A DNA stretch of 34,729 nt. Origin: an uncultured Bacteroidota bacterium. GTDB taxonomy: Bacteria > Bacteroidota > Bacteroidia > 2-12-FULL-35-15. The notes under the pieces were generated by a model that saw only the letters and a program-made list of their open reading frames with translations, made no database searches and was not told the DNA's origin. Numbering within the stretch: the stretch's first letter is position 1; every line of letters starts with the position of its first letter. Shown one piece after another: positions 1 to 22,835 of the stretch. The DNA is taken from contig CAIRRW010000071.1 of assembly GCA_903881065.1 (NCBI GenBank), positions 1-34,729 on the forward strand. Reading direction: 5' to 3'. The position numbers and the translations under genes are program-made.

Positions 1-1384
1 CCGCCACTTCCTGTAAGTGTTACAGGTATTCCATTACAAACAGTGGTTGCTGTTGTGTTCGCAATTATTGTCGGCAGATTATTTACAGTTACAGTTACTG
101 ATGAAGTGTTAGTACAACTATTAATATCAGTACCTGTAACAGTATATGTTGCTGTTGAAACCGGCGTAAATGAAACATCATTTGTTACACCTCCGCTCCA
201 AATATAACTTGTTGCTCCTCCTCCATGCAATGTATCTATAAAACCAGCGCATATACTTGTTGAACTTGCACTTGCTGTTATTACAGGCAAACTGTTAACA
301 GTAATAGATATTGTTGATGTATTACTGCAATTAGTACCAACAGTTCCTGTAACAGTATATGTTTGAGATGATGAAGGAACAAAAGCAACATTATCTGTTA
401 CTCCTCCACTCCAACTATAACTTATTGCTCCTCCACCAATCAATGTTATTGATGTGCCCGAACATACTGTAGTTGCTGAAGCATTTGCGGTAATTGTAGG
501 TAATGAATTTACAGTAACTGTAACTAAATTTGTATTTACACATCCATGGCTATCAGTGCCAGTAACAGTATAACTTCCAGTTGCAGCAGGAATAAATGAA
601 ACCCCATCTGTTACACCGCCAGTCCAGCTATAAGTCGTTCCGCCGCTTCCTGTAAGCGTTACAGGAATACCATTACATATACTGGTTGCAGTTGCGTTTG
701 CAATTATTGTTGGCAATGGATTTACTGTAACTGTTACTGATGCAGTATTGTTACATCCATTATTATCAGTACCTGTAACAGTATATGTTGATGTAGATGA
801 AGGGCTGAATGATACACCATTTGTTACACCTCCGCTCCAAACATAACTGGTTGCTCCTCCTCCATGCAATGTATCTGTAAAGCCATCGCATATACTTGTT
901 AAACTTGCACTTGCTGTAACTAAAGGCAATGGATTAGCTGTAACTGATATTGATGCTGTTGCCTGACATCCATTTCCATCAGTTCCTGTTACAGAATAAC
1001 TACCCGAACAAAGACTTGTAAGTGTTGAGGAAGTAAATCCGCCAGTCCACAAATATGTATATCCAGGTGTACCGCCCGACAAGGACACAGAAGCAGCACC
1101 ATTGCATGTTCCTGCACAGGTACCGGTAACTGTATTTGATAATACCGGCAATGGATTCACTACTATAGAAACTGAAGATGTATTCGTGCAACTATTATTA
1201 TCCGTACCTGTAACCGTATAAGTTCCTGACAATACTGGAACAAAAGCAACAGCATTAGTTACACCGCTAGTCCAACTATAAGTTGTTGCGCCACTTCCTA
1301 AAAGAGTTGCAGAAGAACCGCTACAAACAGACGGAGCTGAACTACCCGCTGTCACAGTTGGTAAAGCATGGATAATAAATTTCA
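1..1384 (-). repeat. Tandem ~213-nt (~71 aa) Cys-bracketed Ig-like repeats, 6 full copies plus 1 partial, including one SprB-type unit; continues off window
   Basis: Units translate as LP.I.A.AS...(V/I)C.G....L.G.GA.SY.WSGGVT..V.F.P.....YTVTGTD.N.C.N. The YTVTGT anchor (plus-strand cctgtaacagtata) lies near 140, 352, 565, 778, 988 and 1212. The unit near 1000-1150 reads GTCAGTCNGAASVSLSGGTPGYTYLWTGG...LCSGSYSVTGTDGNGC, which is SprB-repeat-like. Confidence 0.7.
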
Positions 1385-4300
1385 AACTGTCAGGAAGACT
1401 TGCACAACCAGTTGACAGATTATTTTGAGTTACATAGTATATATAAGAACCTGCAGCTGTTTGTGTGGATGAATATGAATTACCACTTTGAACAAGTGTA
1501 GTTAAATTTTGATTACTATACCATTCAATATTTGTTCCTGTAGCAGTAAATGTTGGGTTTGTCTGTCCAAAACAAATGGATGCATTACCTGAAGTAATAG
1601 GCATAGCAGGATTAGAATTAATAGTAAGTGTAACTGTATTAGCCGGCCCTGAACATCCTCCAACAGTTTGAGTAATATAATAAGTATACGTTCCGACAGC
1701 AGTCATTCCAGTGTTATAAGTGTTGCCATTAAATAATGAAGTACCTAAAACAGCACTGCTATACCAGTTAACATTGCTACCTGAGGAAGTAAGTGAAGGA
1801 ACAGTACCTCCAAAACAAACACTTGCATCAGTTCCTGATGGTGCACCAGGAGCACTATTAATAGATAGTGTAACTGTATCCGCTTTCGACTGACAACCTG
1901 TAACAGAATTTGTTTGTGTTACATAATACGAATAAACACCAACAGAAGTATCGCCAGTTGCAAAGCTATTTCCACTGAATAAAAGTGTAGATGCATCATA
2001 CCATTGAATGTTTGTACCTGTTGCTGTAAGCGGAGGAACTGTTGTTCCTCTACAGATAGAAACATTTGCGGCTACCGGAGGTGCAGTATAATTTATTTTT
2101 AAAGTTGTAGTATCCGGATGACTCTGACAACCTGTTAATGTATTTAAGTCATAAACATAGTATGTATGAGTTCCAGGTGATGTTATTCCAGTTGTAAAAG
2201 GACTGCCGTTGTGTACAACAGCTCCTGTTGTATCGTGCCAAATTATGTTTGTTCCCGATGCAGTTAAATCAGGAACTGGATTTCCAAAACAAACTGTAAC
2301 AGGAGTTGCAACCGGAGTAACAGGAATACTGTTAATGGTTAATGTATCAGGTGCAGCAGGGCTTTCACATCCATTAACAGTTTGTGTTACCGAATAAGCA
2401 TAAACCCCTGCTACGGTATTTCCAGTGGTAAATGTATTACCGGAATGAACTACTGTAGAAACAGAGTACCATTGAATTGTTGTTCCTGCTGCACTTAAAT
2501 CAGGTATTGTTCCACCAAAACATGCGCCCTTATTTACAACAACAGGTGTAGTTGGAATTGCATTAATAGTAAGTGTAACCTTAGTATATAGACTTTGAAC
2601 ATTGTTAACGGTCTGCGTTACAAAATAATTATAAACTCCAACTGTAGTGTTTCCTGTAGCAAATGGATTTCCTGAATAAACTAAATGAGTTAACAACGAA
2701 TCGCTGTACCATCTGATATTATTACCTGTTGCAGATAAATCAGGAGTAGCGGTTCCAAAACAATTACTTTGATTAGAAGATACCGGATTACTTGGATAAA
2801 TAGTAAGTACAACTGTATCTCGTGCACTCTCGCAATTATTTAACGTTTGTGTTACATAATAGATATAAGCGCCTATTGCTGTAACACCTGTAGAGAATGT
2901 ATTATTAGTAGATACATTAACCATAGCTGAATCGTACCAGATAATATTTGTTCCAATTGCTACCAAATCAGGCGTTGCAGTACCAAATGGAATAGAAATA
3001 TTATTAACATGTACAGAAGGAGTAAAGTGAATTGTAAATGTAATTGTGGATGCAGGACTTACACATCCATTTGTAGTTTGAGTAACATAATAGGTATAAG
3101 TGCCCGCAGCTGTTTGTGTAGGAGTAAATGTACTTCCAGTTCCTGCAAGGGTTGTTAAAGTAACATCACTGTACCAATTAATATTACTTCCTGTAGCACT
3201 TAAAGTTGGATTCGCTTGTCCAAAACAAATCGCAACATTGCCTGAAGTAACAGGAGCAGCAGGCGTTGGATTAATTGTTAAGGTTACAGAATCAGCAGGA
3301 CTTTGACAACCACTAACAGTTTGAGTTAAATAATATGTATATACTCCTGCTGCTGTATTACCAGTATTGTATGTATTTCCATTAAATAATACTGTGGATA
3401 AATTTTGATTGTTATACCAGTTAACATTTGTTCCTGTGGCTACTAAAACAGGTGTTGACTGACCAAAACAAACGTTTGCATTTGATGAAACTGGTGCTGA
3501 AGGCAAAGCATTAATTGCAAGGGTAACAGTATCCTTTAAACTTTCACATCCCGTTGTTGAATTGGTTTGAGTTACATAATAAGTATGAATACCAATCACT
3601 GTTTGTCCTGTATTGAAAGGGCTTCCCGAATGAACTGCTGCAAACGCTGAGTCATACCATTGAATATTTGTACCCGTCGCAGTTAGCGCTGGAATTGTAG
3701 TTCCTGCACAAACACTAACATTTGAAGCAACAGGGCGCGCCGTAAAGTTTATTGTAACAGATACAGTATCATAAGGGCTTTGGCAACCAGTTAATGTACT
3801 TGTTTGAGTTACCAGATAAGTATATACTCCTGGTAATGTTTTACCAGATGCGAACGGACTTCCTGAGCCTATTAATGAAGGAGCTGTAAAATACCATTTA
3901 ATATTAGTACCTGTTGCCGTTAAATCAGGAGTTGATGAACCAAAACAAGAAGAAACATTTGAAGCAACAGGTTTCGATGGAAGACTATTAATTGTTAATG
4001 TATCTGCTTTTGAAGGGCTTTCACATCCATTAAGTGTTTGTGTTACAGTATATGGATAAACTCCAACCGCAGTGTTTCCTGTTGCAAATGAACTGCCGGA
4101 AGAAATAACGGAAGTACCAGAATACCATTGGATAGATGAACCTGTTGCTGTAAGATTAGGAATTACTCCTCCAAAACAAGCAGATTGATTATTTGCATTT
4201 GGCGCAGCAGGAATTGAATTTATTGTCAAGGTTACTGTTGTTGGAGAACTTTGAATACCATTAACAGTTTGGGTTACATAATAGGTATATGTTCCAACTA

Positions 4301-7300
4301 TACTTTGTCCTGTGGCAAAAGTACTACCCGAATGAACAAGATTAGTAAGACCCGAATTACTGTACCAATTAATGTTCATACCTGTGCTGGTTGTCAAATC
4401 AGGAATAGTGTTGCCAAAACAAATTGCAACATTCGATGAAACAGGAGCAAGTGGTCGTATGGTTAATTTAACGGTATCTTTAACACTTTCACATCCATTT
4501 AAAGTTTGAGTAACATAATATGTATATTGTCCAATAGCAGTTTGACCTGTAGCAAAAGTATTTCCTGTTGCCGTTGAGGTTCCTGTTGAATCATACCAAA
4601 TAATGTTGCTGCCAACAACAGTAAAATCAGGAACTGTTGTACCAGCAACTACATTAATATTACTAGCAGAAACAGGAGGTGTCAAATGAATTGTAAACAC
4701 CAAGTTTGAAGCAGTACTCGAACATCCATTAACTGTTTGTGTTACATAAAAATTATAAATTCCGGCAGCAGTTTGAGCTGGAGTAAAAGGACTGCCTGTA
4801 TGAACCAGAGTTGTTAATGCAGCATCACTATACCAGTTTACATTCGTTCCGGTAGCTGTTAACGAAGGATTAGCTTGACCAAAACAAATTGAAACATTAC
4901 CGGAAGTAGTTGGTGAAGCAGGATTTGGATTAATAGTTAGAGTAACTGTATCTGGAGGACTTACCGGGCAACCAATTGTACTGTCAGTTAAATAATAAAT
5001 ATAAGTGCCAACAGCAGTATTTCCTGTATTGTATGGGTTACCAGTATAAACAAGTGTAGTTAAAGAAGAGTTGCTATACCAATGTATTATTGTTCCTGTT
5101 GATGATAGCGAAGCTACTGACTGACCAAAACAAGAAACAACATCATTCGCTGTTGGTTTCACAGGAGCACTGTTAATTACCAAAGCAGCGGTATCAGGTT
5201 TGCTGATACAACCACTTGCTGAATCAGTTTGGGTTATATAATAAGTGTATGTTCCTACAGCAGTATTTCCTGTGTTGTATGGATTACCTGTAAACAAAAG
5301 ATTAGTCAACGCAGGGTTGCTATACCATTTAACTGTATCGGCACCTGTTGAGGATGCTACTAAATGCGGCGTGGGATTTCCAAAACATGAGTTTGCATCG
5401 TTTGTAATTGGTCGGGAAGGCAAAGCTCCAATATTCAAATGTACTGTATCAGCAGGACTAGTGCATCCTAAAGCAGACTGAGTTAAATAGTAAGTATAAT
5501 TACCAACAGCTGTTAATCCTGTATTGTATGTATTACCGCTATGAACTAATGTTGTTAAACCAGGATTACTATACCATGAAACATTTGTACCTGTTACAGT
5601 TAATGCTGGTGTAGATTGACCAAAACATATTTTGACATTAGCTGAAGTCGGTGCTGAAGGTAAAGGATTGATAGTAAGGATTACTCTCTTTGCAGAACTT
5701 TCACAATTATTTAGTGTCTGTGTCACATAAAAAGTGTCAACACCTACCGCTGTAAGCCCTGTATTATATGGATTCCCTGCATATAAGAATGTCATATTCG
5801 AACTATACCATTTCAAGTTTGTCCCTGTTGCAGTAAGAGTAGATGATGAACTTCCAAAGCATGAAGTTTGACTGTTTGCTGTTGGTTGCGATGTGAAATG
5901 TATTGTAAGAGTTGCGGTATCTTTTGCACTTGCACAACCCAACAAAGAATCAGTTTGTGTTACATAATAAGTATATGTACCAGGTGAAGTTAAACCAGTA
6001 GAATAATTATTACCAATATGAAGTTGTGACAAGGAAGGACTATACCATTTAATAGTATCGCTACCTGTTCCTGTTGCACTGAAGGAAGGTATTGTACCTC
6101 CAAAACATGCGGATATGTTATTTACAATTGGTTTAGAAGGTATAGAATGTATAATAAGCGAAACTGTATCTGAAATGCTTTTAGGACATCCTGCAGTACT
6201 ATCAGCAACATAAAAAGTATAGGTTCCTGCAGCTGTCATTCCAGTGTTATAAGGGTTACCAACATAAAGCAAATTAGTTAAACTTGAATTAGAATACCAT
6301 TTTTGAATTGTTCCAGTAGAAGTTAATGTTGGTATTGCACTTCCAAAACAAGCTGACTTATCAGCAGCAACAGGTTTAGTAGGAGCAACATTTATATGGA
6401 GTTGAACACTATCCTTTCTGCTTTGGCACCCATTTATTGAATCAGTAGCTGTTACGTAATAGGTATAAACTCCAACGGCAGTTTGTCCTGTATTGTAGGC
6501 TGCTCCTATATGCTGTAAAACCATTGAAGAATTATACCATTTTATTGTATCACCTGAATTTCCTGTAGCAGTAAATGACGGAACAGTATAACCATAACAA
6601 ACATTTATACTACTTGCCACAGGAGGTGCTGGAGCAATAGAATCAACAGTCAGAGTTACGGGGATGGTATCAACTGTATTTAATGGGTCGTTTGAATTCA
6701 AAAATATAGAATAGTTATGTACTCCTGGTGCTTGTCCATTTTTATAAAACACAACCGAACCCGTATAAGAGTTTCCTGCAGATGTTGTTCCTAAACGTGG
6801 ACTAATATTTACCCATGTTGGAGTTATATAAGCACCTCCTCTTAGTACACCGTTATTGCCAGATGGACTTAAATCATTTGCTGTTCCATTCTCAAAATTC
6901 CAATATCCTTTTAACCCAACCTCATTACCAGTTAAAGTATTAGTCATTGAAGTTACTATTTCGGCCTGTGATAATGCAAGATTGTATATTCTTACTTCAT
7001 CAATTTTACCATTAAAATATCTACCAGGATAATCCGTAGAACCGATAGCAAAATTATTAGATTGGACATTAGGTAACGAGGAAAGGGTTCCATTTATTGG
7101 AACTCCATTCATATACAATGTAACAGAAGTACCATTAAGTACACAAGCTATATGATTCCATTGGTTTAATACTGCCGTAGGACCTGAATTCGGGACGAAA
7201 TCATTACACCATGTTGCCATACTAGGTCGCCCATTGTTTTGAATAGAAAGCAACATTGCTGTTCCATTACAGTACCTGCCACCCCAACTCACTATTCCGT

Positions 7301-10300
7301 TGTAAGTTCCATCAGGATAAGAAACAGGATATATCCATGCTTCAGCCGTCATTACACTTCCCGTTGGCAAGTTAACAGTTCCATTATTTATATAAGCGCT
7401 GTTCCCATTAAATACCGCGCTTCCACTATTTGAGTTAGTTAAACTCCATAATAAGTTACTGCCTCCATTTGTATTGCATACCGTTATAGGCTTAGCAATA
7501 GAATCCTGGCAAATTGTAAAGTGAATATTATAAGAATTTGGACTATGACATTGCTCAGGTCGTGGATAACCTATACCTGATAAACAAATTTTCTTTGTTA
7601 CATTATTATCAATTATTGTTAATGTATCCTTAAATGTTCCAACAGTAGTTGGTGAAAACACTACTCTTACTTTAGCAGAATCTCCAGGTAGTAAATTAAA
7701 CGATGTTGGACTAACTGAATAAACACTGAGCTGATGAGTAATATCAGTTATCTTCAAAGTGTCACACCCAGTATTCTTTACATAAAGAGAAGAATCGATG
7801 GAGGCAGTATTAATCATTATCGAATCAAGATTCAAACAGTTTCTATTTGTCGAAATTAAGCCAGTACCTGTTACATGAAGTGTGCAATGAACGGAATCGA
7901 TCGGTTTTAATGGGTCGTTAGAACTAATCACCACATCTGTATTATAAGTTCCTACCAATAATCCACAACTCTTAAATTTCATATTAACAATACTTGATCC
8001 TCCAGCAGTTGTTGTGTCTTTATTAGGTGTATAACTTAACCAAGTTGAATTGTTGTTAAGATAATAAAGAGCATTAGCGAACATCATGTCTGTTGAAGCA
8101 TTTGCCGAATTGAGATATTCAGGAAATATTACCATTCCTATTACTTTTCCATTATGGTTTTCAGCCACTACCTTGTTGCCTGATAAGTCAGAAGCAAGTA
8201 ATGTCGCTCCTGGATTAAGTGATGGATTGTAATAATTGCAATTTGTCCAATAGGATGGATTAACACTAATATTTTTAAATATAGGGTGATTATGATTTGG
8301 GAGTGTTGCTAAATTTATAGTACCTGAAACACATTGAGTACTGCCAGATTGTATAAATGGAGAATAATTTGCCCCCATTATCCCTCCTGACATTCCCCAA
8401 TTAGAATTAAAGGCATACGTTCCAATTATTACACCTCCACCATTATCAACATATTTTTTAAGAGTATCACCTACCATGGAAGAACCGAATGAATTATCAG
8501 TCCAAACAAGTACAGCATTATAAGGAGCTAACATGGTCATTTTTAAAGATGATGGATTTACCATAATATCTATATCTGAAGCAATAAATTTACCAGTTGA
8601 AACAAGGGCATTCTTAGCATTAACTCCAGCATCACCTGCGGTCAGAATAAGTACTTTTGGTTTTGTTGTACCTCCTCCACCTTTAATGCTACAAATCAAA
8701 TTTGAACCACCTGTATTGTTAATTGTTAATGGAAGAATGGTGGAATCACAACATGACAAACTTACATTGAATGACGTTGGAGTTGTAGAAAGAATTGGTC
8801 TTTGAAAACATTTTCCTAACAAACATACTTTTTTGGTAATATTATTATTTAATATAGTAAGCGTATCAAGGAAAGTACCAACAGCAACAGGAGAAAAAGT
8901 GGTATATAATTTTGTTGAATCACCTGGCAAAATTTTAAATGATGTAGCATTAACCGTAAATATATTTAGTTGGTTAGTGATATTAGTAATCTTCAATGTG
9001 TCACACCCTGTATTTTTAATATAAAGGGAATCTTTATGCGAGGTATATTGCATTATTGAATCAAGATTCATACAATTCTTTGACAAGGCTATTCTACCAG
9101 CTCCAACTACAGTTAAAGAACAAGGCACAATTAATGGACTATTAATCGGATCGTTACTTGTTATTGAAACAGTTGCTGTATTTGTTCCTACATTTAAATT
9201 GGAAGAATTAAAATTCACATTAACTATATTCGAATTACCTGAAGCTACACTTCCTGTTAAACTTGACAATGCAACCCAAGAAGCAATCTTAACTGTGTAA
9301 TCTTCAAATTGACCATACGTAACATTCGTGCATGGTTGTGGTGCAGAATAATAATAATATTCTGATCCAACCCTCATCCTTACCGCTTTATTCTTAACAG
9401 CAGTTGTTGGAATTGTAACAGTACCTGTATGAAGAGTATTTGGCAGTGAATTAAGATTATTCAATACCATTTCACTAGCATCGAAAACACCATCATTATT
9501 GAAGTCAATCCATACTCTCACATTCTCAGGATAACTAGTTCCTGTTTGTACTGATATGGAGTAAGTTTGTCCTGGAATTACCACTGTACTTTGCGATGAT
9601 GTATAATTCTGGTAACCCTGCACAGCATTGCCAGTAGTATTATTAATGGAACCAAAAGTAACATTATAAATACCCATATTGCAACACGTTCCTGTAGTGG
9701 CAGGTGCGCATAAAGCTGCTGAAGGCAAATTGGAATTCATTGATGGATTCAACAAATTAATATTGTAATTCAATACGGAACCTCCAGTATTATTTATTGT
9801 TAAGACACTAGAAGTCGAATCAACACAGGAAAGTGTCGCATTTATTGACGTTGGACTTGTAGTAATAGTTGGCATTGCGAAAGCTTTTCCTGATAAACAA
9901 ACTTTTTTTGTTGCATCATTATTTATGATTGTAAGTGTATCTTGGAAAGATCCAACTGCTATAGGCGAAAACGTCGAGTATATCTTTGTTGAATCCCCTG
10001 GCAGAATATTAAAAGTTGTAGGATTAACTGTAAAAATAGAGGTTTGCGTTGTGATATTTGAAATCTTTAATGTATCACATCCTGTATTCTTCACAAACAT
10101 GGAATCCTTATGTGTTCGATGTTGCATAATAGAATCCAGATATATGCAGTTTTTTGACAAAGCAATTTTACCCGCTCCGGATACATGAAGAGTACAATGA
10201 ACTGTGTCATTTGAATTAAGAGGGTCATTAGAATTTACAATTATGTTAGTAGTATAGGTTCCCACTGGCAATCCGCAACTTTTTAATTTTACATAAACGG

Positions 10301-13300
10301 TATCCGTGCCACCGGCAGAAATATTACCTGAGAATAAACTAGCTGAAAAGCCTTCAGGAAAAGAAACCGGATTGCTTGTATTTAACCAAGAAGTATTAAT
10401 GCTAGTTCCATTATTACTATTCAAAGTTTTATCAAACAAGGTTGTACCACTTCCTTCAGAAAGTGGATAATAGGCAACCAATCCTGATAGCGCGGGATTA
10501 ATTTGACCATACAAGTTAGCAGCTATCTGTGCTTGTGTTCTTGCATAATTCCAAATCCTTACTTCAGTAATATCACCATTATAATAATAAGAATGACTTC
10601 CTGTGCCTCCATAAGCTCCAATTATTTCTCCCAGTTGTCCTTTTACTAATGGACAAGTAAATGAACTTGTTCCTCTTAATACCCCGTCTACATATACTTT
10701 CTTATTTGATCCATCATAGGTGGCTGCTATATGATGCCAAGCTCCATTTGTGATCCCGATAGAAGCAGAATTCAAATAATAATCCGTTCCGCATCCTCCA
10801 GATTGAGGATAGGTTCTGAAACACAAACTTGTCCCTTCAAAAAATAACGAATACTGCGTATTTACTGGACCCTTTTCAAAAATAAATCCATTCTGATTAT
10901 AATTAGAAGAATAAACCCAAGCTTCAATCGTCAACTGATTTAAATCAAATGCAGTAGAGTTATTAATTTGGACATAGCTATTGGCACCATTATAATTTAA
11001 AGTATGACTATTATTTTTATTCAAACTCCAATTTAGATTTGAGCCTCCTGCATTATTAACTGCCAATGGCAATGTAATTGAATCACAACATGCCAATGTT
11101 TCATTAAAATAAGTTGGGGAAGTTGAAAGAATTGGTCTTGCAAATGCTTTACCTGACAAACACAATTTTTGCGTTATGTTATTGTTTAAAATAGTTAATG
11201 TGTCATTGAAAGTTCCAATGGTAGTTGGGGCAAAGGTTACTTTAAGTTTCGCCGAATCACCGGGTAAAATGTTAAATGATGTTGAATTAACAGAATAAGC
11301 AGCTAATTGATGAGTAATATTTGTAATCTTCAATGTATCGCATCCAATGTTTTTCACGTATAATGAATCCATTTTACTTCTGTATTGCATTATTGAATCC
11401 AAATTCATACAGTTTTTTGTTAGTGCAATTGTTCCTGAACCTGAAACATGAATTGTATATGGTACTACAATAGGATTGTGAATAGGATCGTTATTATTGA
11501 TGGTTATATTACCTGAATATGTTCCAACATTTAATCCCATCGAACTAAATTGTACATTCACAGTACTTAATGATCCCGAGCCTATGGTCCCAGAATAGGA
11601 AGAAACAGATTCCCCAATTGATGAACTTGTTTTTAAAGTATAATCTTCGAATTGTCCATAAGTAACACTATTACATGGTTGAGGAACTCCATAATAATAA
11701 TATTCCGAGCCTACTCTCATCCTCATTGCACCATTTGCCCCAGCATTAAGGGGTATGGTAACACTTACAGTATGTACATTATAGCTAGAATTCCCATTCA
11801 TAATTTGCTCATTGGCTTCAAATATTCCATTGTTGTTATAATCAATCCACGCACTTACATATTCAGTATAGGAAGGTCCAGTTTGGACAGATAATGTATA
11901 GGTATGTCCTGGAATTATCAATGTGCTTTGGCTTGATGTATAATCCTGATAACCTTGTGTTGCATTTCCAGTTGTATTATTGATAGTATTAAATGTTACA
12001 TTATATATTCCCATATTACAGCAGGTTCCAGTAGTGATTGGTCTACAGGAAGGATTTACTGGTAAATTAGGATTGATAATAGAATAATTTAAAGCTCCTC
12101 CTCCTGTGTTATTAATTACAAGAGAAGTATTGAGTGAGTCGGAACAGCCAAGAGTAACATTAAACGAGGTAGGATTTGTAGAAATTGTTGGATTAGGGAA
12201 TGCTTTTCCTGTTAAACAAATTGCTGTATCTATTGCATTAGTATATAGTGAGAGTGTTCCTGAGAACGTTCCTGCATTGGTTGGGGAAAACTTCACTACT
12301 AAGTTTTTACTTAAGCCAGGTGCAATCATTGTTGGATAAGAGACAACAGAGTAAACGGATGGCGAAATGGAATAACTGTTTATTCTTAAAGTATCACAAC
12401 CTGTATTTGTTATTTTTAATGAATCTGTACTGGTAGTATTTGCCATTATTGAATCCAAATCAAGACAAGGTTTGGTTGTATTATACATAGAAGCTGTTAA
12501 GTGAGGGCTTCCATTAACAGTCAACGTCCAAGGTATTTGTAATGTTGGAGTAACCGGATCATTACTTGAAAGTGCAATACTTCCTGAATAAGTACCGGAG
12601 CTATAACCTATTGAATTAAAATTGACATTCAAATTTGTTGAACTATTTGCAGGAATAGTGCCTGAAGTTGGAGACATTGTTATTAATGTTGGCACCTTTA
12701 CTACATAGTCTTCTGTTTCTCCATAATAACCGCTTAAAGACCCACATGGTGAAGGGGCTGATCCATTAGTCCAATCAATAATTCTCATTCGAGTTGCTCC
12801 TGCTGCTGCATTCTGAGGAACAGTAATAGTAAAGGTTCTCAAACTATTTCCAGTTGAAACATTTGTTACTACTTCTTCATTTGCATCAAAAACCCCATTT
12901 TGATTCCAATCTATCCATACCGAGAAGTAAGCAATATTACAACTCCCTTGGGCTTGAAGGTTTAACATAAAAGTGCCTCCTCTGTTTTGCGAAACAAATG
13001 GAGCAGTATAATATGAATAATCTCCATATGGGTAACTTCCATCTACAGGAGACGTAATATTTGTAATTCCTCCGGAAGTTGTTACACTATTAATATAGGA
13101 ACACCCGTTATAAGGATACATGGTTGGATTACAATATCCAGTTGGTGGATTAGAATTATTTCCAGAACTTATTCCAGTTGCATTCCAATTCAAAACACTT
13201 CCTCCTGAATTAATTAACAATACAGATGAAGCTGTTGAATCAGAACAACCCAAAGCAACAGAAAGTGAAGTTGGCAAGACTCCAATAATCGGGTTGGCAA

Positions 13301-15959
13301 ATGCTTTTGAGTTTAAACAAACTGTTGTATCGGCTAGATTTGAATAAATAGTAAGTATGCCAGAAAAGATCCCTGCCGTTGTCGGAGAAAATTTAATTAA
13401 TACATTTTTACTTACTCCAGGAGCAATCATACCTGAAGTAGATGAAAGAATGGAATAAGCAGAATTAGAAATATTCATGCTGCTAATCATTAATGTATCA
13501 CAACCAGTATTTGTTATAGAAAGTGAATCCATTCGCGTGGTGTTTGCCATTATGGAATCATGATCTATACAAGAATTTGGATTATTGAATAAGGTAATAT
13601 TGTATTGAGCAGTACCAACAACATTTAATGTACAAGGAATTGATACAGTAGGAGTACTTGGGTCATTAGTAGCGATAATAATGGAATTAGTATATGTACC
13701 TGCAACAAGCCCGTTCGAACTAAAATGAATAGAATCGTAAAGAGTACTGCCTGCTGAAACATTACCGGAACTTTGGGAAACAGTAAACCAACCACTTCTA
13801 TTTGCAGTATAACTTAATGCATTCGCCATTAACATGGCACCATCTGTACTAGTTATCCAATTATCACCAGGCCACATATTCAAATCAACACGATTAGTTC
13901 CGTTTATTTGCCGTGTGGCAATAAGCGGTGTTCCATCCGACCAATCTGCAATTCTTGTCGCAAGCGGATCAACGGAAGAAGCATTGGCACGATACGAATT
14001 CCCTCCTCCATCAAAACTAGAAACATTCTGTAAAATAGGACTGTTCGGACTATAGATGGTTCCTAATGTTGCCTCACTTGAGAAATAACCGCCAGGATGG
14101 TCAATGCACCAGTAATTACTCGAATTAAATCGTCCTCCAATATTGGCATTTTCTAGAGACCACATTGCAGTTACTACTCCTCCTCCTCCATCAATATAAT
14201 CTGCCAGATTATTTCCAAGTGTAGTATAGTCAGCGTAACCCCAATCGCTCCATACCATAACAGCATCATATTGTTTTAGCTGCGTTAAAGTAGGAGTTAC
14301 AGTTGCAGTATTATAAATATCAATAATTGAAAATTTGCCAGTAGCCATTAGAGTTGACTGAAGCCCTGGCAATGCATTGTATTCAGCACCCATTAATGCT
14401 GCTTTTATTTTTTGCTTTGAAGCTTGAAAAGATAAATTACTGGCACCTGTATTGCTTATTGCGAGTGTACTTAAAGACGAGCTACTACAACCAAGTGTTA
14501 CATTAAAAGAAGGAGGAGTAACTGAAACAGTTGGTATTGCCGAACAATAACCAATAAGACAAATGGTAGTATCGTGTGCATTGTTATGAATTGTTAATGT
14601 ACTGGTATTGTTTCCAAGTATCGTTGGAGCAAATGTAATAGTTATTTTTACTGAATCATAAGCAGCTATCGTATCAATTGCAGGGGACACTATAAAAGCG
14701 GAATTAGAACTAATGATGCTGCTGACAATAAGCGAACCGCAAGCAGTATTATATAACTTAATTGTTTTTGAGGAATAACTTGTTTGCACTGTTGTATCCA
14801 ATTTGACACAACTTGTGGGAATGCCAATTGCAGGAAGATTTGAGCAGCAATCATGTATTTGAATTGCTGTATGTTCGTCATCAGAGACGCCATTGCCTAA
14901 TTGCCCATAACTATTATATCCCCATGCCCAATAAGTTCCATCATTTTTTATAGCCAAGGTGTGATTCATTCCTGCTGCAATTGCAGTGATGCCGGATAAT
15001 GAACTAACTAGGGCTGGATAATTTCTTGAATTGGTTGTTCCATTGCCTAATTGTCCATTATTATTGTAACCCCATGCCCAGATAGTACCATTATTTCCTA
15101 AAGCAAGTGAATGGTAAGTACCTGCTGAAATTGCAGTTATCCCTGACACATAGCTCACTTGAACAGGTGAATATTGCGTACTATTTGTTAAGTTCCCAAT
15201 TCCTCCATAATAATTGTATCCACATGCCCAAACAGTTCCATTATTTTTCAAAAAGAGCGAATGATAAGCTCCTGCACTTATAGTTGTGATACCTGATATT
15301 GATGTCTGAACAGGGATTAATTTGTCATTACTAGTAGCATCCCCTAACTCTCCGTAATAATTATAGCCCCACGCCCAAACAGTACCATCATTTTTTAATG
15401 CCATTGCATGATAATTTCCTGCCGATATTTTTGTGATACCTGAAAGAGAGGTAATTTGAATAGGATAAGAGCTATTGTAATAAGTACCATTGCCTAATTG
15501 CCCATACCCATTATAACCCCAAGACAATACAGTACCATCACTTTTTACAGCATAAGAGGAATAATAACCTGCTGCAACAGAAACAATTCCAGTTAATGCT
15601 CTAACCTGAATTGGATAAGGGTAAGAATTGTAAGTACTGTCTCCTAATTGTCCATATCCATTATATCCCCAAGTCCATACTGTACCATCGCTTTTTAGAG
15701 CAATAGTATGGTATTCACTACCAGTAATAGCTATAACTCCTGAAAGCCCATTAATAATTTGAGGTTGTGTAATACTATTAAATGTGCTATCCCCTAATTG
15801 GCCATTTCCATTATTCCCGAAGGCTTTTAATTTCCCGTCATTGCATACAAGAAAGCTATGGTAAGCTCCAGCTCCAATAATTTGGGAGTTCACTGTTTCA
15901 CTTAAGAAAGAGAAAGATAACAGGAGTAATAACGGTGGAAAAAGTAATTTTCTTTTCAT
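1..15959 (-). CDS. Giant secreted multidomain cell-surface adhesin-like protein. The 5' end is complete and the 3' end runs off the window start (at least 5319 codons in window). A T9SS C-terminal sorting domain is expected beyond the window.
   Basis: ATG at 15959-15957 is followed by MKRKLLFPPLLLLLSFSFLSETVNSQ. Hand translation of the minus strand near 15950, 15239, 7418, 2579 and 524 gave five sensible domain sequences, all in the same frame (distance from 15959 divisible by 3). The track lists no long minus-strand ORF here, which fits an ORF with no in-window stop being omitted; the same happens for the + ORF at the 3' edge. Confidence 0.85.
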   Translation of the reverse strand, partial: MKRKLLFPPLLLLLSFSFLSETVNSQIIGAGAYHSFLVCNDGKLKAFGNNGNGQLGDSTFNSITQPQIINGLSGVIAITGSEYHTIALKSDGTVWTWGYNGYGQLGDSTYNSYPYPIQVRALTGIVSVAAGYYSSYAVKSDGTVLSWGYNGYGQLGNGTYYNSSYPIQITSLSGITKISAGNYHAMALKNDGTVWAWGYNYYGELGDATSNDKLIPVQTSISGITTISAGAYHSLFLKNNGTVWACGYNYYGGIGNLTNSTQYSPVQVSYVSGITAISAGTYHSLALGNNGTIWAWGYNNNGQLGNGTTNSRNYPALVSSLSGITAIAAGMNHTLAIKNDGTYWAWGYNSYGQLGNGVSDDEHTAIQIHDCCSNLPAIGIPTSCVKLDTTVQTSYSSKTIKLYNTACGSLIVSSIISSNSAFIVSPAIDTIAAYDSVKITITFAPTILGNNTSTLTIHNNAHDTTICLIGYCSAIPTVSVTPPSFNVTLGCSSSSLSTLAISNTGASNLSFQASKQKIKAALMGAEYNALPGLQSTLMATGKFSIIDIYNTATVTPTLTQLKQYDAVMVWSDWGYADYTTLGNNLADYIDGGGGVVTAMWSLENANIGGRFNSSNYWCIDHPGGYFSSEATLGTIYSPNSPILQNVSSFDGGGNSYRANASSVDPLATRIADWSDGTPLIATRQINGTNRVDLNMWPGDNWITSTDGAMLMANALSYTANRSGWFTVSQSSGNVSAGSTLYDSIHFSSNGLVAGTYTNSIIIATNDPSTPTVSIPCTLNVVGTAQYNITLFNNPNSCIDHDSIMANTTRMDSLSITNTGCDTLMISSMNISNSAYSILSSTSGMIAPGVSKNVLIKFSPTTAGIFSGILTIYSNLADTTVCLNSKAFANPIIGVLPTSLSVALGCSDSTASSVLLINSGGSVLNWNATGISSGNNSNPPTGYCNPTMYPYNGCSYINSVTTSGGITNITSPVDGSYPYGDYSYYTAPFVSQNRGGTFMLNLQAQGSCNIAYFSVWIDWNQNGVFDANEEVVTNVSTGNSLRTFTITVPQNAAAGATRMRIIDWTNGSAPSPCGSLSGYYGETEDYVVKVPTLITMSPTSGTIPANSSTNLNVNFNSIGYSSGTYSGSIALSSNDPVTPTLQIPWTLTVNGSPHLTASMYNTTKPCLDLDSIMANTTSTDSLKITNTGCDTLRINSYSISPSVYSVVSYPTMIAPGLSKNLVVKFSPTNAGTFSGTLSLYTNAIDTAICLTGKAFPNPTISTNPTSFNVTLGCSDSLNTSLVINNTGGGALNYSIINPNLPVNPSCRPITTGTCCNMGIYNVTFNTINNTTGNATQGYQDYTSSQSTLIIPGHTYTLSVQTGPSYTEYVSAWIDYNNNGIFEANEQIMNGNSSYNVHTVSVTIPLNAGANGAMRMRVGSEYYYYGVPQPCNSVTYGQFEDYTLKTSSSIGESVSSYSGTIGSGSLSTVNVQFSSMGLNVGTYSGNITINNNDPIHNPIVVPYTIHVSGSGTIALTKNCMNLDSIMQYRSKMDSLYVKNIGCDTLKITNITHQLAAYSVNSTSFNILPGDSAKLKVTFAPTTIGTFNDTLTILNNNITQKLCLSGKAFARPILSTSPTYFNETLACCDSITLPLAVNNAGGSNLNWSLNKNNSHTLNYNGANSYVQINNSTAFDLNQLTIEAWVYSSNYNQNGFIFEKGPVNTQYSLFFEGTSLCFRTYPQSGGCGTDYYLNSASIGITNGAWHHIAATYDGSNKKVYVDGVLRGTSSFTCPLVKGQLGEIIGAYGGTGSHSYYYNGDITEVRIWNYARTQAQIAANLYGQINPALSGLVAYYPLSEGSGTTLFDKTLNSNNGTSINTSWLNTSNPVSFPEGFSASLFSGNISAGGTDTVYVKLKSCGLPVGTYTTNIIVNSNDPLNSNDTVHCTLHVSGAGKIALSKNCIYLDSIMQHRTHKDSMFVKNTGCDTLKISNITTQTSIFTVNPTTFNILPGDSTKIYSTFSPIAVGSFQDTLTIINNDATKKVCLSGKAFAMPTITTSPTSINATLSCVDSTSSVLTINNTGGSVLNYNINLLNPSMNSNLPSAALCAPATTGTCCNMGIYNVTFGSINNTTGNAVQGYQNYTSSQSTVVIPGQTYSISVQTGTSYPENVRVWIDFNNDGVFDASEMVLNNLNSLPNTLHTGTVTIPTTAVKNKAVRMRVGSEYYYYSAPQPCTNVTYGQFEDYTVKIASWVALSSLTGSVASGNSNIVNVNFNSSNLNVGTNTATVSITSNDPINSPLIVPCSLTVVGAGRIALSKNCMNLDSIMQYTSHKDSLYIKNTGCDTLKITNITNQLNIFTVNATSFKILPGDSTKLYTTFSPVAVGTFLDTLTILNNNITKKVCLLGKCFQRPILSTTPTSFNVSLSCCDSTILPLTINNTGGSNLICSIKGGGGTTKPKVLILTAGDAGVNAKNALVSTGKFIASDIDIMVNPSSLKMTMLAPYNAVLVWTDNSFGSSMVGDTLKKYVDNGGGVIIGTYAFNSNWGMSGGIMGANYSPFIQSGSTQCVSGTINLATLPNHNHPIFKNISVNPSYWTNCNYYNPSLNPGATLLASDLSGNKVVAENHNGKVIGMVIFPEYLNSANASTDMMFANALYYLNNNSTWLSYTPNKDTTTAGGSSIVNMKFKSCGLLVGTYNTDVVISSNDPLKPIDSVHCTLHVTGTGLISTNRNCLNLDSIMINTASIDSSLYVKNTGCDTLKITDITHQLSVYSVSPTSFNLLPGDSAKVRVVFSPTTVGTFKDTLTIIDNNVTKKICLSGIGYPRPEQCHSPNSYNIHFTICQDSIAKPITVCNTNGGSNLLWSLTNSNSGSAVFNGNSAYINNGTVNLPTGSVMTAEAWIYPVSYPDGTYNGIVSWGGRYCNGTAMLLSIQNNGRPSMATWCNDFVPNSGPTAVLNQWNHIACVLNGTSVTLYMNGVPINGTLSSLPNVQSNNFAIGSTDYPGRYFNGKIDEVRIYNLALSQAEIVTSMTNTLTGNEVGLKGYWNFENGTANDLSPSGNNGVLRGGAYITPTWVNISPRLGTTSAGNSYTGSVVFYKNGQAPGVHNYSIFLNSNDPLNTVDTIPVTLTVDSIAPAPPVASSINVCYGYTVPSFTATGNSGDTIKWYNSSMVLQHIGAAYNTGQTAVGVYTYYVTATDSINGCQSRKDSVQLHINVAPTKPVAADKSACFGSAIPTLTSTGTIQKWYSNSSLTNLLYVGNPYNTGMTAAGTYTFYVADSTAGCPKSISDTVSLIIHSIPSKPIVNNISACFGGTIPSFSATGTGSDTIKWYSPSLSQLHIGNNYSTGLTSPGTYTYYVTQTDSLLGCASAKDTATLTIHFTSQPTANSQTSCFGSSSSTLTATGTNLKWYSSNMTFLYAGNPYNTGLTAVGVDTFYVTQTLNNCESSAKRVILTINPLPSAPTSANVKICFGQSTPALTVTGTNVSWYSNPGLTTLVHSGNTYNTGLTAVGNYTYYLTQSALGCTSPADTVHLNIGALPSRPITNDANSCFGNPTPHLVASSTGADTVKWYSNPALTNLLFTGNPYNTGNTAVGTYTYYITQTDSASGCISKPDTAALVINSAPVKPTANDVVSCFGQSVASLSSTGTIIHWYSNSSLTTLVYTGNPYNTGNTAVGTYIYYLTDSTIGCPVSPPDTVTLTINPNPASPTTSGNVSICFGQANPSLTATGTNVNWYSDAALTTLVHTGSPFTPAQTAAGIYNFYVTQTVNGCSSTASNLVFTIHLTPPVSASNINVVAGTTVPDFTVVGSNIIWYDSTGTSTATGNTFATGQTAIGQYTYYVTQTLNGCESVKDTVKLTIRPLAPVSSNVAICFGNTIPDLTTSTGMNINWYSNSGLTNLVHSGSTFATGQSIVGTYTYYVTQTVNGIQSSPTTVTLTINSIPAAPNANNQSACFGGVIPNLTATGSSIQWYSGTSVISSGSSFATGNTAVGVYPYTVTQTLNGCESPSKADTLTINSLPSKPVASNVSSCFGSSTPDLTATGTNIKWYFTAPSLIGSGSPFASGKTLPGVYTYLVTQTSTLTGCQSPYDTVSVTINFTARPVASNVSVCAGTTIPALTATGTNIQWYDSAFAAVHSGSPFNTGQTVIGIHTYYVTQTNSTTGCESLKDTVTLAINALPSAPVSSNANVCFGQSTPVLVATGTNVNWYNNQNLSTVLFNGNTYNTGNTAAGVYTYYLTQTVSGCQSPADSVTLTINPTPAAPVTSGNVAICFGQANPTLSATGSNINWYSDVTLTTLAGTGSTFTPTQTAAGTYTYYVTQTTNGCVSPASTITFTIHFTPSVHVNNISIPFGTATPDLVAIGTNIIWYDSAMVNVSTNNTFSTGVTAIGAYIYYVTQTLNNCESARDTVVLTIYPSNPVSSNQSNCFGTATPDLSATGNNIRWYSDSLLTHLVYSGNPFATGNTTVGVYNYFVTQTVNNVQSLYTKVTLTINAIPTTPVVVNKGACFGGTIPDLSAAGTTIQWYSVSTVVHSGNTFTTGNTVAGVYAYSVTQTVNGCESPAAPDTLTINSIPVTPVATPVTVCFGNPVPDLTASGTNIIWHDTTGAVVHNGSPFTTGITSPGTHTYYVYDLNTLTGCQSHPDTTTLKINYTAPPVAANVSICRGTTVPPLTATGTNIQWYDASTLLFSGNSFATGDTSVGVYSYYVTQTNSVTGCQSKADTVTLSINSAPGAPSGTDASVCFGGTVPSLTSSGSNVNWYSSAVLGTSLFNGNTYNTGMTAVGTYTYYITQTVGGCSGPANTVTLTINSNPAMPITSGNASICFGQTNPTFTATGTNIEWYSNQNLTTLVQSGNSYSSTQTAAGSYIYYVTQNNLSTGCASLPDSLKFIIHALPTVTAGSSAPSVCSGSSATLLGSGATTYSWTSGVTNAVAFVPVLSGTYTVTGTDNNSCTNTSSVSIVVNPLPVLSNTVTGTCAGTCNGAASVSLSGGTPGYTYLWTGGFTSSTLTSLCSGSYSVTGTDGNGCQATASISVTANPLPLVTASASLTSICDGFTDTLHGGGATSYVWSGGVTNGVSFSPSSTSTYTVTGTDNNGCNNTASVTVTVNPLPTIIANATATSICNGIPVTLTGSGGTTYSWTGGVTDGVSFIPAATGSYTVTGTDSHGCVNTNLVTVTVNSLPTITANASATTVCSGTSITLIGGGAISYSWSGGVTDNVAFVPSSSQTYTVTGTVGTNCSNTSTISITVNSLPVITASASSTSICAGFIDTLHGGGATSYIWSGGVTNDVSFTPVSTATYTVTGTDINSCTNTSSVTVTVNNLPTIIANTTATTVCNGIPVTLTGSG
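1385..6650 (-). repeat. 22 tandem ~240-nt (~77-80 aa) Ig-like repeats of the type associated with CHU_C/T9SS giant proteins
   Basis: One unit translates as P..P.V...V.CFGG.IPDLSA.GT.I.WY.......H.GN.FTTG....G.Y.Y.VTQT.NGCES....L.I. The CFG anchor (plus-strand ccaaaaca or variants) recurs 22 times, near 1568, 1810, 2045, 2285, 2515, 2755, 2990, 3220, 3465, 3705, 3940, 4170, 4415, 4640, 4880, 5120, 5385, 5625, 5865, 6105, 6345 and 6595. Confidence 0.8.
6930..7420 (-). other. Guest domain 7: LamG (Laminin_G_3 / concanavalin A-like lectin) domain
   Basis: Translation is AVFNGNSAYINNGTVNLPTGSVMTAEAWIYPVSYPDGTYNGIVSWGG...LNQWNHIACVLNGTSVTLYMNGVPINGT...FAIGSTDYPGRYFNGKIDEVRIYNLALSQAEI. Confidence 0.8.
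8055..8656 (-). other. Guest domain 6: second copy of the uncharacterised alpha/beta (GATase1/ThuA-like?) domain
   Basis: Translation is KVLILTAGDAGVNAKNALVSTGKFIASDIDIIMVNPSSLKMTMLAPYNAVLVWTDNSFGSSMVGDTLKKYVDNGGGVIIGTYAF...TDMMFANALYYL. It is a paralog of 13805-14410. Confidence 0.35.
9285..9710 (-). other. Guest domain 5: GEVED-type domain
   Basis: Translation is CAPATTGTCCNMGIYNVTFGSINNTTGNAVQGYQNYTSSQSTVVIPGQTYSISVQTG...VRVWIDFNNDGVFDASEMV...KAVRMRVGSEYYYYSAPQPCTNVTYGQFEDYTVKI. It is a close paralog of 11628-12050. Confidence 0.65.
10497..11000 (-). other. Guest domain 4: LamG (Laminin_G_3 / concanavalin A-like lectin) domain
   Basis: Translation is LNYNGANSYVQINNSTAFDLNQLTIEAWVYSSNYNQNGFIFEK...GAWHHIAATYDGSNKKVYVDGVLRG...YNGDITEVRIWNYARTQAQIAANL. 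This is the classic F.G.dyv ... T.EaWv ... W.Hva.tyDG..l.lYvDG ... f.G.idEvRiwn.aRt..eI pattern. Confidence 0.75.
11628..12050 (-). other. Guest domain 3: GEVED-type domain
   Basis: Translation is SCRPITTGTCCNMGIYNVTFNTINNTTGNATQGYQDYTSSQSTLIIPGHTYTLSVQTG...VSAWIDYNNNGIFEANEQI...GANGAMRMRVGSEYYYYGVPQPCNSVTYGQFEDYTLKT. Confidence 0.65.
12693..13139 (-). other. Guest domain 2: GEVED-type domain
   Basis: Translation is GYCNPTMYPYNGCSYINSVTTSGGITNITSP...YFSVWIDWNQNGVFDANEEV...AAAGATRMRIIDW...PCGSLSGYYGETEDYVVKV. It carries the WIDWNQdG.F core, the trMR motif and a C-terminal GE(T)EDY signature. Confidence 0.65.
13805..14410 (-). other. Guest domain 1: uncharacterised alpha/beta domain, possibly class-I glutamine-amidotransferase-like/ThuA-like fold
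   Basis: Translation is KAALMGAEYNALPGLQSTLMATGKFSIIDIYNTATVTPTLTQLKQYDAVMVWSDWGYADYTTLGNNLADYIDGGGGVVTAMW.... The alternating beta-alpha pattern with a (Y)D/NAV(L/M)VW.D and V/IDxGGGV signature is paralogous to 8055-8656. The fold assignment rests on pattern memory only. Confidence 0.35.
14860..15880 (-). repeat. Seven RCC1-like repeats (predicted 7-bladed beta-propeller), period ~150 nt
   Basis: Translated motifs GNNGNGQLGDST, GYNGYGQLGDST, GYNGYGQLGNGT, GYNYYGELGDAT, GYNYYGGIGNLT, GYNNNGQLGNGT and GYNSYGQLGNGV lie near 15795, 15645, 15495, 15345, 15195, 15045 and 14895. They are interleaved with HS/HT..ALK.DGTVW strands typical of RCC1/ATS1 repeats. Confidence 0.8.
15885..15959 (-). other. 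N-terminal signal peptide of the giant protein
   Basis: MKRK n-region, LLFPPLLLLLSFSFL hydrophobic core, then a polar SETVNSQ stretch. The cleavage position is approximate. Confidence 0.6.
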
Positions 15960-16151
15960 TTGAATGAATTATAAATTAGATGTATATATTTAATATTTAG
16001 ACAGAACCATATGCTATGCGGCTAAAGTAATAAAATGTTTTATCAGAAAAAAGGACTTATGTTAGAAATATTCATTTTTAAGTTAAATACCTACTAAACA
16101 TTGATTTTTAACCTTAAAGAAAAACATTGGAACGCGAAATGTCAAGTTTTC

Positions 16152-16268
16152 CCGACCAATTGTAACCCTCTGGCAAACATTTGTAACCTATTACCGACCA
16201 TTAGTAACCTCCCGACAACAATTAGTAACCAATTCCCGACAAAAAGTAACTATTTATAAATAGTTACT
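16152..16268. repeat. Phased 21-bp repeat array: five direct units with a GTAAC core, ending in a perfect 24-bp palindrome. Candidate operator array and/or operon terminator.
   Basis: GTAAC occurs at 16162, 16183, 16204, 16225 and 16246, spaced exactly 21 bp. The units are CCGACCAATTGTAACC, GCAAACATTTGTAACC, CCGACCATTAGTAACC, ACAACAATTAGTAACC and CCGACAAAAAGTAAC. The palindrome AGTAACTATTTA|TAAATAGTTACT spans 16245-16268. The array lies 193-309 bp upstream of the giant-gene ATG and 77-193 bp downstream of the operon stop. Confidence 0.7.
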
Positions 16269-17587: not shown

Positions 17588-17606
17588 ACGTATCTATCTT
17601 TTATTT

Positions 17607-18371: not shown

Positions 18372-18388
18372 TGGTTAATATAATTTCT

Positions 18389-19453: not shown

Positions 19454-19456
19454 AAA

Positions 19457-20659: not shown

Positions 20660-20698
20660 TGGTTAATTGTCAATATTAAATTGTCAATTATTAAAGAA

Positions 20699-20953
20699 TT
20701 ATTTTTTGTTCTCATTAATAAATTCAGCCATTGTTCTGATGGACTGGAAAATCTTTTTCCCATCGGCAGGGTTGGATATTTTTATTCCATAATTTTTTTC
20801 CAACAATACTATCAGCTCAAGAGCATCAATAGAATCCAATCCTAAACCTTCTCCAAATAAAGTTGCATCACTATCAATATCTTCATTTTTTAAACCTTCA
20901 AGATTTAATTGCAAAATGATCTCCCCTTTTAATTTGTCCATTAATTCTTCCAT
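20699..20953 (-). CDS. Acyl carrier protein
   Basis: 84 aa, acidic, with the phosphopantetheine attachment motif LGLDSIDALELIVLLE. Confidence 0.85.
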   Translation of the reverse strand: MEELMDKLKGEIILQLNLEGLKNEDIDSDATLFGEGLGLDSIDALELIVLLEKNYGIKISNPADGKKIFQSIRTMAEFINENKK

Positions 20954-20997
20954 AACTTTTGTTTTTTGCTTTATCTTTTTCCTTTACGGATAATTGA

Positions 20998-21636: not shown

Positions 21637-21637
21637 A

Positions 21638-22822: not shown

Positions 22823-22835
22823 TTATTTCCTCTTT

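Follow-up and report, generated by a model that had tools for sequence, protein, structure and literature searches.

The DNA analysed here is a contig of 34,729 bp from an uncultured Bacteroidota bacterium (CAIRRW010000071.1, GenBank assembly GCA_903881065.1), taken over its entire length and referred to below as the window. Nearly half of it encodes, on the minus strand, a single giant protein with an N-terminal RCC1-like propeller, seven immunoglobulin (Ig)-like domains that are each split by a whole foreign domain, and a long stalk of tandem Ig-like repeats that runs off the end of the contig. [quoted passage not shown]

Open frame and domain layout of the giant protein

Reverse-complement translation of positions 1 to 15,959 gave a minus-strand frame of 5319 codons, from the ATG at 15959 to position 3, with zero stops and with in-frame stops directly upstream of the ATG. 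The other five frames of the same segment contained 272–474 stops each, with a maximum open run of 139 codons, and the probability of finding zero stops in 5319 codons was ~1e-164 as computed from base composition. A preliminary description, made from the sequence alone, had proposed this stop-free frame and had held that the region merely looks empty in the list of open reading frames (ORFs). Both points were confirmed, the giant ORF being absent from the list because ORFs that run off an end are omitted there. The window spans the whole contig, and the gene is cut at its 3' side by the contig end and not by the window edge; the C-terminus of the protein is therefore missing. For annotation, this means that the apparent 16-kb gap arose from an ORF-listing rule, and that giant genes of this kind are routinely cut by contig ends.

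The 5319 residues were scanned with Pfam and NCBIfam, and repeats and modules were counted with hidden Markov models (HMMs) built from the protein itself. The resulting features were as follows:

3..15959, minus strand: giant ORF, 5319 codons, 3' end off the contig, with ~390 residues missing as judged from an orthologue
15885..15959, minus strand: Sec-type signal peptide, residues 1–25, no lipobox Cys (by inspection of the sequence)
14844..15884, minus strand: seven-bladed RCC1-like beta-propeller, the N-terminal head, residues 26–372 (PF25390, PF00415)
14526..14843, minus strand: first complete Ig-like domain, CFAP65/ASH type, residues 373–478 (Pfam and own HMMs)
13611..14534, minus strand: split-Ig unit 1, residues 476–783, with a ThuA/GATase1-like alpha/beta insert at residues 515–724 (DNA 13788–14417)
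12507..13295, minus strand: split-Ig unit 2, residues 889–1151, with a GEVED insert at residues 936–1090
11436..12194, minus strand: split-Ig unit 3, residues 1256–1508, with a GEVED insert at residues 1298–1445
10173..11138, minus strand: split-Ig unit 4, residues 1608–1929, with a LamG insert at residues 1649–1862
9099..9875, minus strand: split-Ig unit 5, residues 2029–2287, with a GEVED insert at residues 2076–2226
7863..8801, minus strand: split-Ig unit 6, residues 2387–2699, with a second, divergent ThuA-like insert at residues 2431–2640
6645..7562, minus strand: split-Ig unit 7, residues 2800–3105, with a LamG insert at residues 2844–3053
7563..13592, minus strand: six complete spacer Ig domains of ~99 residues in alternation with the split units, carrying the motifs C..LDSIM and NTGCDTL (residues 790–888, 1157–1255, 1509–1607, 1930–2028, 2288–2386 and 2700–2799)
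1329..6608, minus strand: stalk array A, 22 tandem Ig_7-type repeats of ~82 residues, residues 3118–4877 (Pfam and own HMM)
3..1364, minus strand: stalk array B, six complete and one partial Ig_7-type repeats of 72 residues, residues 4866–5319 (own HMM)

The N-terminus, MKRKLLFPPLLLLLSFSFLSETVNSQ, was judged by eye to have a basic n-region and a hydrophobic core. The RCC1 head matched PF25390 (WD40_RLD) at 334 bits (cut-off 150) and PF00415 in seven stretches. Pfam further returned GEVED three times, Laminin_G_3 twice, many Ig domains of the HYDIN/VesB/ASH type and Ig_7 (PF19081) in 20 stretches, and NCBIfam returned the choice-of-anchor D model (NF012200) at 129.3 bits (cut-off 45) in six stretches. 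About 42 Ig-like domains stand in series, at least 28 of which, at the C-terminal side, form a monotonous stalk, and the contig ends within the seventh repeat of array B. Every domain that the preliminary description had read from the hand translation was recovered: the signal peptide, the seven RCC1 blades, the seven composite modules, the 22 and the 6 Ig-like repeats, and the GEVED, LamG and alpha/beta domains, the last without annotation. Significant Pfam and NCBIfam matches to RCC1, LamG, GEVED and Ig models occur throughout the protein.

The missing end was estimated from P0202, a complete orthologue of 5671 residues encoded on an independently assembled 26-kb contig of Logan run ERR12084902 (locus L056). 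P0202 starts with an RCC1 head and an Ig domain; seven split units follow, and the 22 + 6 stalk repeats are then extended by three 82-residue repeats and one 72-residue repeat before a C-terminal domain. Its identity to the window protein is 48–57% across the aligned segments, all of them collinear, and window residues 1868–5319 align with P0202 residues 1813–5281 at 57% identity. Because of this collinear alignment, ~390 residues are taken to be missing and the full length is put at ~5,700 residues. Three attempts at extending the contig past position 1 gave nothing: an exact 60-mer (window 1–60) had no match among genome contigs, a wobble-masked 62-mer had none among metagenome contigs, and exact-protein look-ups of neighbouring window genes returned no record.

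The contig comes from an assembly of an uncultured organism and ends in a repeat array, as might be expected of an assembly artefact or of a decaying, functionless pseudogene. That explanation can be given almost no weight against zero stops in a frame of this length and a collinear orthologue from a separate assembly with the same 22 + 6 repeat counts. Identity between stalk repeats is only 64–81% at the DNA level, and the first array of a second orthologue, L003, also has 22 repeats within its available sequence; collapse of the repeats during assembly is unlikely because of this divergence and the shared counts, and was rejected. The GC content of the giant gene (36.3% against 33.2% for the rest of the contig) and that of its third codon positions (GC3; 0.195 against 0.21–0.36 in neighbouring genes) are likewise close to the remainder of the contig, which argues against an artefact. 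Horizontal acquisition of the gene was also considered and was rejected, since GC and GC3 resemble those of the remaining contig. Taken together, the open frame and its orthologue indicate that the 16-kb stretch is one real gene, truncated by the contig end, with a predicted full length of ~5,700 residues.

Two further features of the stalk were recorded. Array A contains a diverged duplication of ~7 repeat units (1397–3471 against 3056–5133, offset 553 residues, 67% DNA identity), and the final 359 nt of the contig have a copy at a distance of 639 nt, with 81% identity, that may be the cause of the assembly break.

Split Ig-like domains and their inserts

Each composite module is a complete Ig domain followed by an Ig domain that is split, in one loop, by a whole foreign domain: a 40-residue piece is followed by a globular domain and then by a 60-residue piece. 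The inserts of units 1 to 7 are, in order, ThuA-like, GEVED, GEVED, LamG, GEVED, ThuA-like and LamG. When the insert was deleted, the two joined halves matched the HMM of the complete Ig domain clearly in five of the seven units (E 1e-7 to 7e-4) and PF22544 in six of the seven, at profile positions ~18–96 of 100 (25–96 in unit 4); each such match was a single stretch spanning the junction. AlphaFold2 models were of good confidence for unit 1 (residues 476–790; predicted local distance difference test score, pLDDT, 89.3; predicted template-modelling score, pTM, 0.81) and for unit 3 (residues 1256–1508; pLDDT 86.3, pTM 0.71). In both, the N-terminal half of ~40 residues, which could not fold by itself, was modelled at pLDDT 91–95.

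Natural variants of the units provided further evidence. Nine of the 188 split units found among relatives have no insert. In one of these, at residues 2405–2505 of the related protein L001, the sequences that flank the insertion point of window unit 7 are both matched, but they form a contiguous 101-residue Ig domain without the LamG domain. In unit 4, the flanks are 55–56% identical between the window protein and P0202 with 0–1 gaps, and the insert is LamG in the former and GEVED in the latter; in unit 1, the ThuA-like insert of the window protein is matched in position by an unrelated 217-residue domain in P0202. The boundaries of the BLAST segments between the two proteins coincide with the insert boundaries. 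The split Ig domains resemble sockets, and those of the family hold at least 15 kinds of insert. LamG (38), GEVED (37) and the alpha/beta domain (21) were counted among the 188 units, and further inserts include Reelin subrepeat-B, MAM, a seven-bladed YncE/lactonase-like propeller, other ConA-like domains and several domains without assignment.

The alpha/beta insert, which had carried no annotation, is predicted from its model to have a ThuA/GATase1-like fold. The two copies scored 20.7 and 29.9 bits against ThuA (PF06283), under the Pfam cut-off of 33.4, and no sequence match was found in PDB. Foldseek placed first 4jqs, a ThuA-like protein of Bacteroides uniformis (E 5e-9, target-normalised template-modelling (TM) score 0.60), and also returned 3rht, which is GATase1-like (E 1.6e-6); non-catalytic GATase1-like domains (GH42-type beta-galactosidase) were among the fold matches. 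No Cys or His is invariant in a 16-sequence alignment of the insert, and the Cys-His-Glu triad of GATase1 is for this reason considered absent. A unit made of a ThuA-like domain and the C-terminal half of a choice-of-anchor-D Ig domain was also seen to be widespread in large secreted proteins, where it co-occurs with subtilisin (S8), thermolysin (M4) or gingipain-like (C25) peptidase domains (P0129–P0140, P0148, P0167 and others), in several cases with a helical segment of ~60–80 residues before the unit.

Such a fold, and its recurrence beside peptidase domains in choice-of-anchor-D proteins, would suit a scaffold for several enzymes or for carbohydrate processing, secreted or tethered to the surface, with ThuA-like and LamG inserts that do more to polysaccharides than bind them; ThuAB has been linked to disaccharide oxidation in rhizobia (PMC8121099). 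An enzymatic scaffold, conceivable only by way of the ThuA-like inserts, is nevertheless unlikely in view of the sub-threshold ThuA scores, the absence of a conserved triad and the presence of non-catalytic domains among the fold matches, and no catalytic family was found above threshold by Pfam or NCBIfam in the 5319 residues.

Distribution and variation of the family

A profile of the scaffold module retrieved 2,894 representative proteins at E ≤ 1e-30; with the threshold relaxed to E ≤ 1e-10, the number was 12,008. In a scan of species-representative genomes, 55 loci were found, nearly all in metagenome-assembled genomes (MAGs) of uncultured Bacteroidota from lakes and groundwater, and many of these loci encode giants that extend beyond the retrieved sequence. 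The relatives bear names such as "choice-of-anchor D domain-containing protein" (NCBI) and "alpha-tubulin suppressor-like RCC1 family protein" (JGI), and have up to 10 split units, against seven in the window protein. The RCC1 head was present in only one of the 143 best representatives. RCC1-headed members are a small subfamily composed of the window protein, L001–L005, L007, L011, L018, P0005, P0124 and P0202. The preliminary description had not recognised the architecture as a characterised one, and this was a fair assessment: no experimental work on it was found, and the databases hold many uncharacterised relatives.

The closest relatives are P0202 and the MAG loci L001–L005, the latter 57–64% identical to the window protein. 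All share its order (RCC1 head, Ig domain, seven split units, 22 + 6 stalk repeats), and none shows upstream synteny with the window. The inserts of P0202 differ from those of the window protein at units 1 and 4 (the unassigned 217-residue domain, GEVED four times, alpha/beta, LamG). L003 carries alpha/beta, GEVED four times, alpha/beta and LamG, and L001 carries alpha/beta, GEVED, a 159-residue MAM-like domain, GEVED, an unassigned 210-residue insert and one empty socket. L003 and P0202 are 84% identical over residues 740–4984 (~4,250 residues) and 55% identical over the first 520; their first inserts differ, and the junction lies at residues ~520–740, at the boundary of head and stalk. From this 84% to 55% split the head region is considered mosaic, with the RCC1 head region apparently swapped in one piece.

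The composition of the giant protein, very rich in Thr, Ser, Asn and Gly and low in charge (E 0.8%, R 0.9%), and its ~42 Ig-like domains would be compatible with a purely structural part at the surface, a coat or a spacer such as a sheath, a protective brush or an S-layer-like fibre, in which the domains bind no particular ligand. We give this explanation only a small probability. The inserts (LamG, MAM, Reelin-B, ConA-like domains, propellers) are typical binding modules, and close relatives exchange them on a scaffold that stays the same, a pattern not easily explained unless binding specificity is under selection.

The first homologue search, made with residues 1–2500, was swamped by unrelated multi-propeller RCC1 giants, and only P0005 was informative. 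P0201 (5324 residues), whose length suggested that it might be the window protein itself, was rejected on its different architecture. L023 and L042 carry a Bacteroidota-type scaffold with GEVED in a bin labelled Candidatus Saccharibacteria, which is probably a binning error.

Secretion, proposed function and comparison with known systems

The C-terminus of P0202 gave 40.7 bits (cut-off 23) against TIGR04183, which models the type A sorting domain of T9SS cargo. The type A domain is C-terminal and about 70–80 residues long (TIGR04183 or PF18962). TIGR04183 also matched the C-termini of the complete relatives L010, L011, L017 and L025, and PF18962 those of L012, L016 and L019, these seven being the complete relatives whose C-termini Pfam scored above cut-off. 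No type B domain (TIGR04131 or PF13585, CHU_C) was matched by NCBIfam or Pfam in the C-termini of the orthologue and the relatives; no CHU_C-like match was obtained in 143 representatives with a weak, single-sequence HMM. The relatives come from Bacteroidota MAGs, a point that bears on the presence of a T9SS in the host. The window contains no core T9SS gene; a 480-residue ORF at 31418–32860 on the minus strand is a second candidate T9SS cargo, with a C-terminal Por_Secre_tail at 27.1 bits (cut-off 27). The description of the protein as T9SS-style was in this way supported through the collinear orthologue and seven complete relatives, and of the two kinds of sorting domain that had been anticipated, type A was found in these proteins and type B/CHU_C was not.

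Directly downstream of the orthologue, 7 nt after the P0202 stop, lies a gene for a 215-residue tetratricopeptide repeat (TPR) protein with a signal-like N-terminus (L056 20001–20648). Homologues that are 48–64% identical adjoin three other members, on the same strand just after the giant gene in L010 and L019 and on the opposite strand in L017. The TPR protein could be a dedicated partner or chaperone of the giant protein.

Adhesion, gliding and ligand capture had all been named as plausible functions. Gliding would make the protein an SprB-like adhesin, a giant surface filament carried along a T9SS-linked track, and the stalk of a giant Bacteroidota protein built from PF19081, the "CHU_C-associated" Ig_7 domain, speaks for it; this repeat type is typical of proteins with type B sorting domains. 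The sorting domain of the orthologue and of all complete relatives tested is of type A and not type B, and for that reason a role in gliding is judged highly unlikely. In addition, the SprB repeat PF13573 was not among the Pfam matches of the giant protein, and the gene downstream of the orthologue encodes the TPR protein and not a PorP/SprF-type shuttle, to which type B cargo is often linked (PMC12618676). Adhesion and ligand capture were retained as the best reading.

As a surface adhesin or ligand-capture protein, the giant protein would first be exported by Sec through its N-terminal signal. Its type A sorting domain, located off the contig, would then be recognised by the T9SS and the PorV shuttle, as is established for other T9SS cargo; type A domains are recognised by PorV, and the cargo is released or surface-anchored (PMC12618676, PMC10202324). 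[quoted passage not shown] With ~46 Ig-like domains at ~4 nm each, our own estimate of the extended length is of the order of 150–200 nm. Seven side-projecting domains and the terminal RCC1 propeller could bind several ligands simultaneously, probably glycans or the surfaces of particles, algae or other cells, and the binding repertoire would evolve via exchange of inserts at the conserved split-Ig loops. This layout fits that of fibrillar adhesins, with a stalk, presented domains and an anchor, as given in a survey that names Por_Secre_tail as a fibrillar-adhesin anchor (PMC8286594). By the definition of fibrillar adhesin-like proteins of Monzon et al., the 28 Ig_7 repeats are the stalk, LamG and GEVED would be candidate adhesive domains, and the anchor would be the sorting domain observed in orthologues.

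Several points weigh against this proposal. The binding, ligands and expression of family members are predictions, the sorting domain of the window protein itself lies off the contig, and the secretion type rests on orthologues that are at most 57% identical. Not all type A cargo stays anchored, some of it being released, and the ThuA-like fold could be catalytic instead of binding. The nesting of the inserts is read from model confidence scores, profile collinearity and natural variants, and not from contact maps, and a fold search with a GEVED unit gave only generic HYDIN/PapD-like Ig matches with poor TM-scores. We know of no defined ligand for either GEVED or RCC1.

A broader proposal can be put forward tentatively, as a possibility that we would not yet favour. 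The family may constitute a T9SS "socket-and-cassette" platform, in which split choice-of-anchor-D Ig sockets display at least 15 kinds of unrelated binding domain, entire seven-bladed propellers among them, that are swapped by recombination between close strains. With the head exchangeable as well, this would be a rapidly re-targetable multivalent adhesin tip of uncultured freshwater and groundwater Bacteroidota, possibly serviced by the downstream TPR protein. Giant T9SS adhesin-like surface proteins and, from RTX adhesins, the split-domain principle are already known; no paper was found that links split domains to the T9SS or that describes a family of choice-of-anchor-D split-Ig giants. 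The split-Ig finding itself would extend the rule that a split domain marks a ligand-binding domain from type I-secreted RTX adhesins to type IX-secreted Bacteroidota giants, and would give a sequence rule by which binding modules may be located in thousands of unannotated giants (the 2,894 representative clusters at the stricter threshold). Because inserts differ among collinear orthologues, the family would also be a natural test bed for the evolution of adhesin specificity, and the split-Ig scaffold a ready-made design for domain display.

The region upstream of the giant gene was searched for regulatory elements, and one feature was recorded:

16158..16230, minus strand: four copies of GGTTAC(W)AAT with an exact spacing of 21 bp (16158, 16179, 16200 and 16221), 200–270 nt upstream of the ATG

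A weaker fifth copy lies at 16104, the copies are each preceded by GTCGGGA-like bases, and all three exact matches to GGTTAC(W)AAT in the window fall within the array at 16104–16230. The same-face phasing suggests a regulator-binding array, with an uncertain link to the giant gene; the array is not conserved upstream of the orthologues. No Rfam match, excess of promoter-like sites, terminator or Bacteroidetes TAnnTTTG motif was found in the upstream region. Immediately upstream, at 16952–23315 on the minus strand, are genes for a LolA-like protein, a polysaccharide deacetylase, three ketosynthase-like proteins and a 4HBT thioesterase. This cluster resembles lipid or pigment loci such as those for flexirubin or aryl-polyene biosynthesis, and none of its LolA, deacetylase, ketosynthase or thioesterase genes lies next to the giant gene in relatives. 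A GTG-started ORF of 228 residues (16345–17031, minus strand) lies between this LolA gene and the giant gene; it has no Pfam hit, overlaps the 3' end of the LolA gene by 80 nt and is likely spurious or mis-started.

The window protein was compared with known surface proteins that share parts of its architecture. GEVED (PF20009) was defined in CshA adhesins, which are fibrillar adhesins built by domain shuffling (PMC10952558). CshA of Streptococcus gordonii is a Gram-positive LPxTG protein in which GEVED domains stand in series after the NR2 binding domain, whereas the window protein has no NR2 domain and carries GEVED nested within a loop of an Ig domain. THC0290_2385 of Flavobacterium psychrophilum, an RCC1-repeat protein with TIGR04183, is found on the cell surface and is absent from the gldD and gldG mutant surfome (PMC5682007). 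It is, by its description, a T9SS-exported RCC1 propeller protein, as the window protein is predicted to be, and nothing indicates a split-Ig scaffold in it.

T9SS-anchored fibrillar adhesins, as described in the consulted passages of the survey cited above, have the same layout of stalk repeats, adhesive domains and a T9SS anchor; those passages do not mention nested split domains or RCC1 heads, and the anchor of the window protein is predicted through its orthologue. The SprB and other type B (CHU_C) giants of Flavobacterium and Cytophaga are likewise giant T9SS-secreted surface proteins of Bacteroidota, and PF19081 Ig_7 repeats are shared with CHU_C proteins. The orthologues of the window protein differ from these in the type of sorting domain, the lack of SprB repeats and the downstream partner gene (TPR instead of PorP/SprF).

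A further likeness is to the RTX adhesins, among them AhLap of Aeromonas hydrophila, FrhA of Vibrio cholerae and MpIBP of Marinomonas primoryensis, which have a long extender stalk of tandem Ig-like domains, as does the window protein (PMC12077191, PMC10865825, PMC5550230). In RTX adhesins, ligand-binding domains project from split Ig-like domains (PMC12077191, PMC10865825), with extender domains between them, and the window protein follows the same grammar. It differs from them in several respects: its predicted route is the T9SS and not the type I secretion system, no HemolysinCabind/RTX or retention-module match was found by Pfam or NCBIfam in its 5319 residues, and its polarity is reversed, with the anchor C-terminal and the binding region N-terminal. 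It has seven split units, and its relatives have as many as 10, against the two Ig-like split domains described in AhLap; the domain that is split belongs to the choice-of-anchor-D/HYDIN-VesB type, unlike that of RTX adhesins; and the inserts are ThuA-like, GEVED and LamG in place of carbohydrate-binding modules, vWFA and peptide-binding domains. By analogy, then, the window protein would work like the split-domain adhesins of the RTX group, of which it is not a member.

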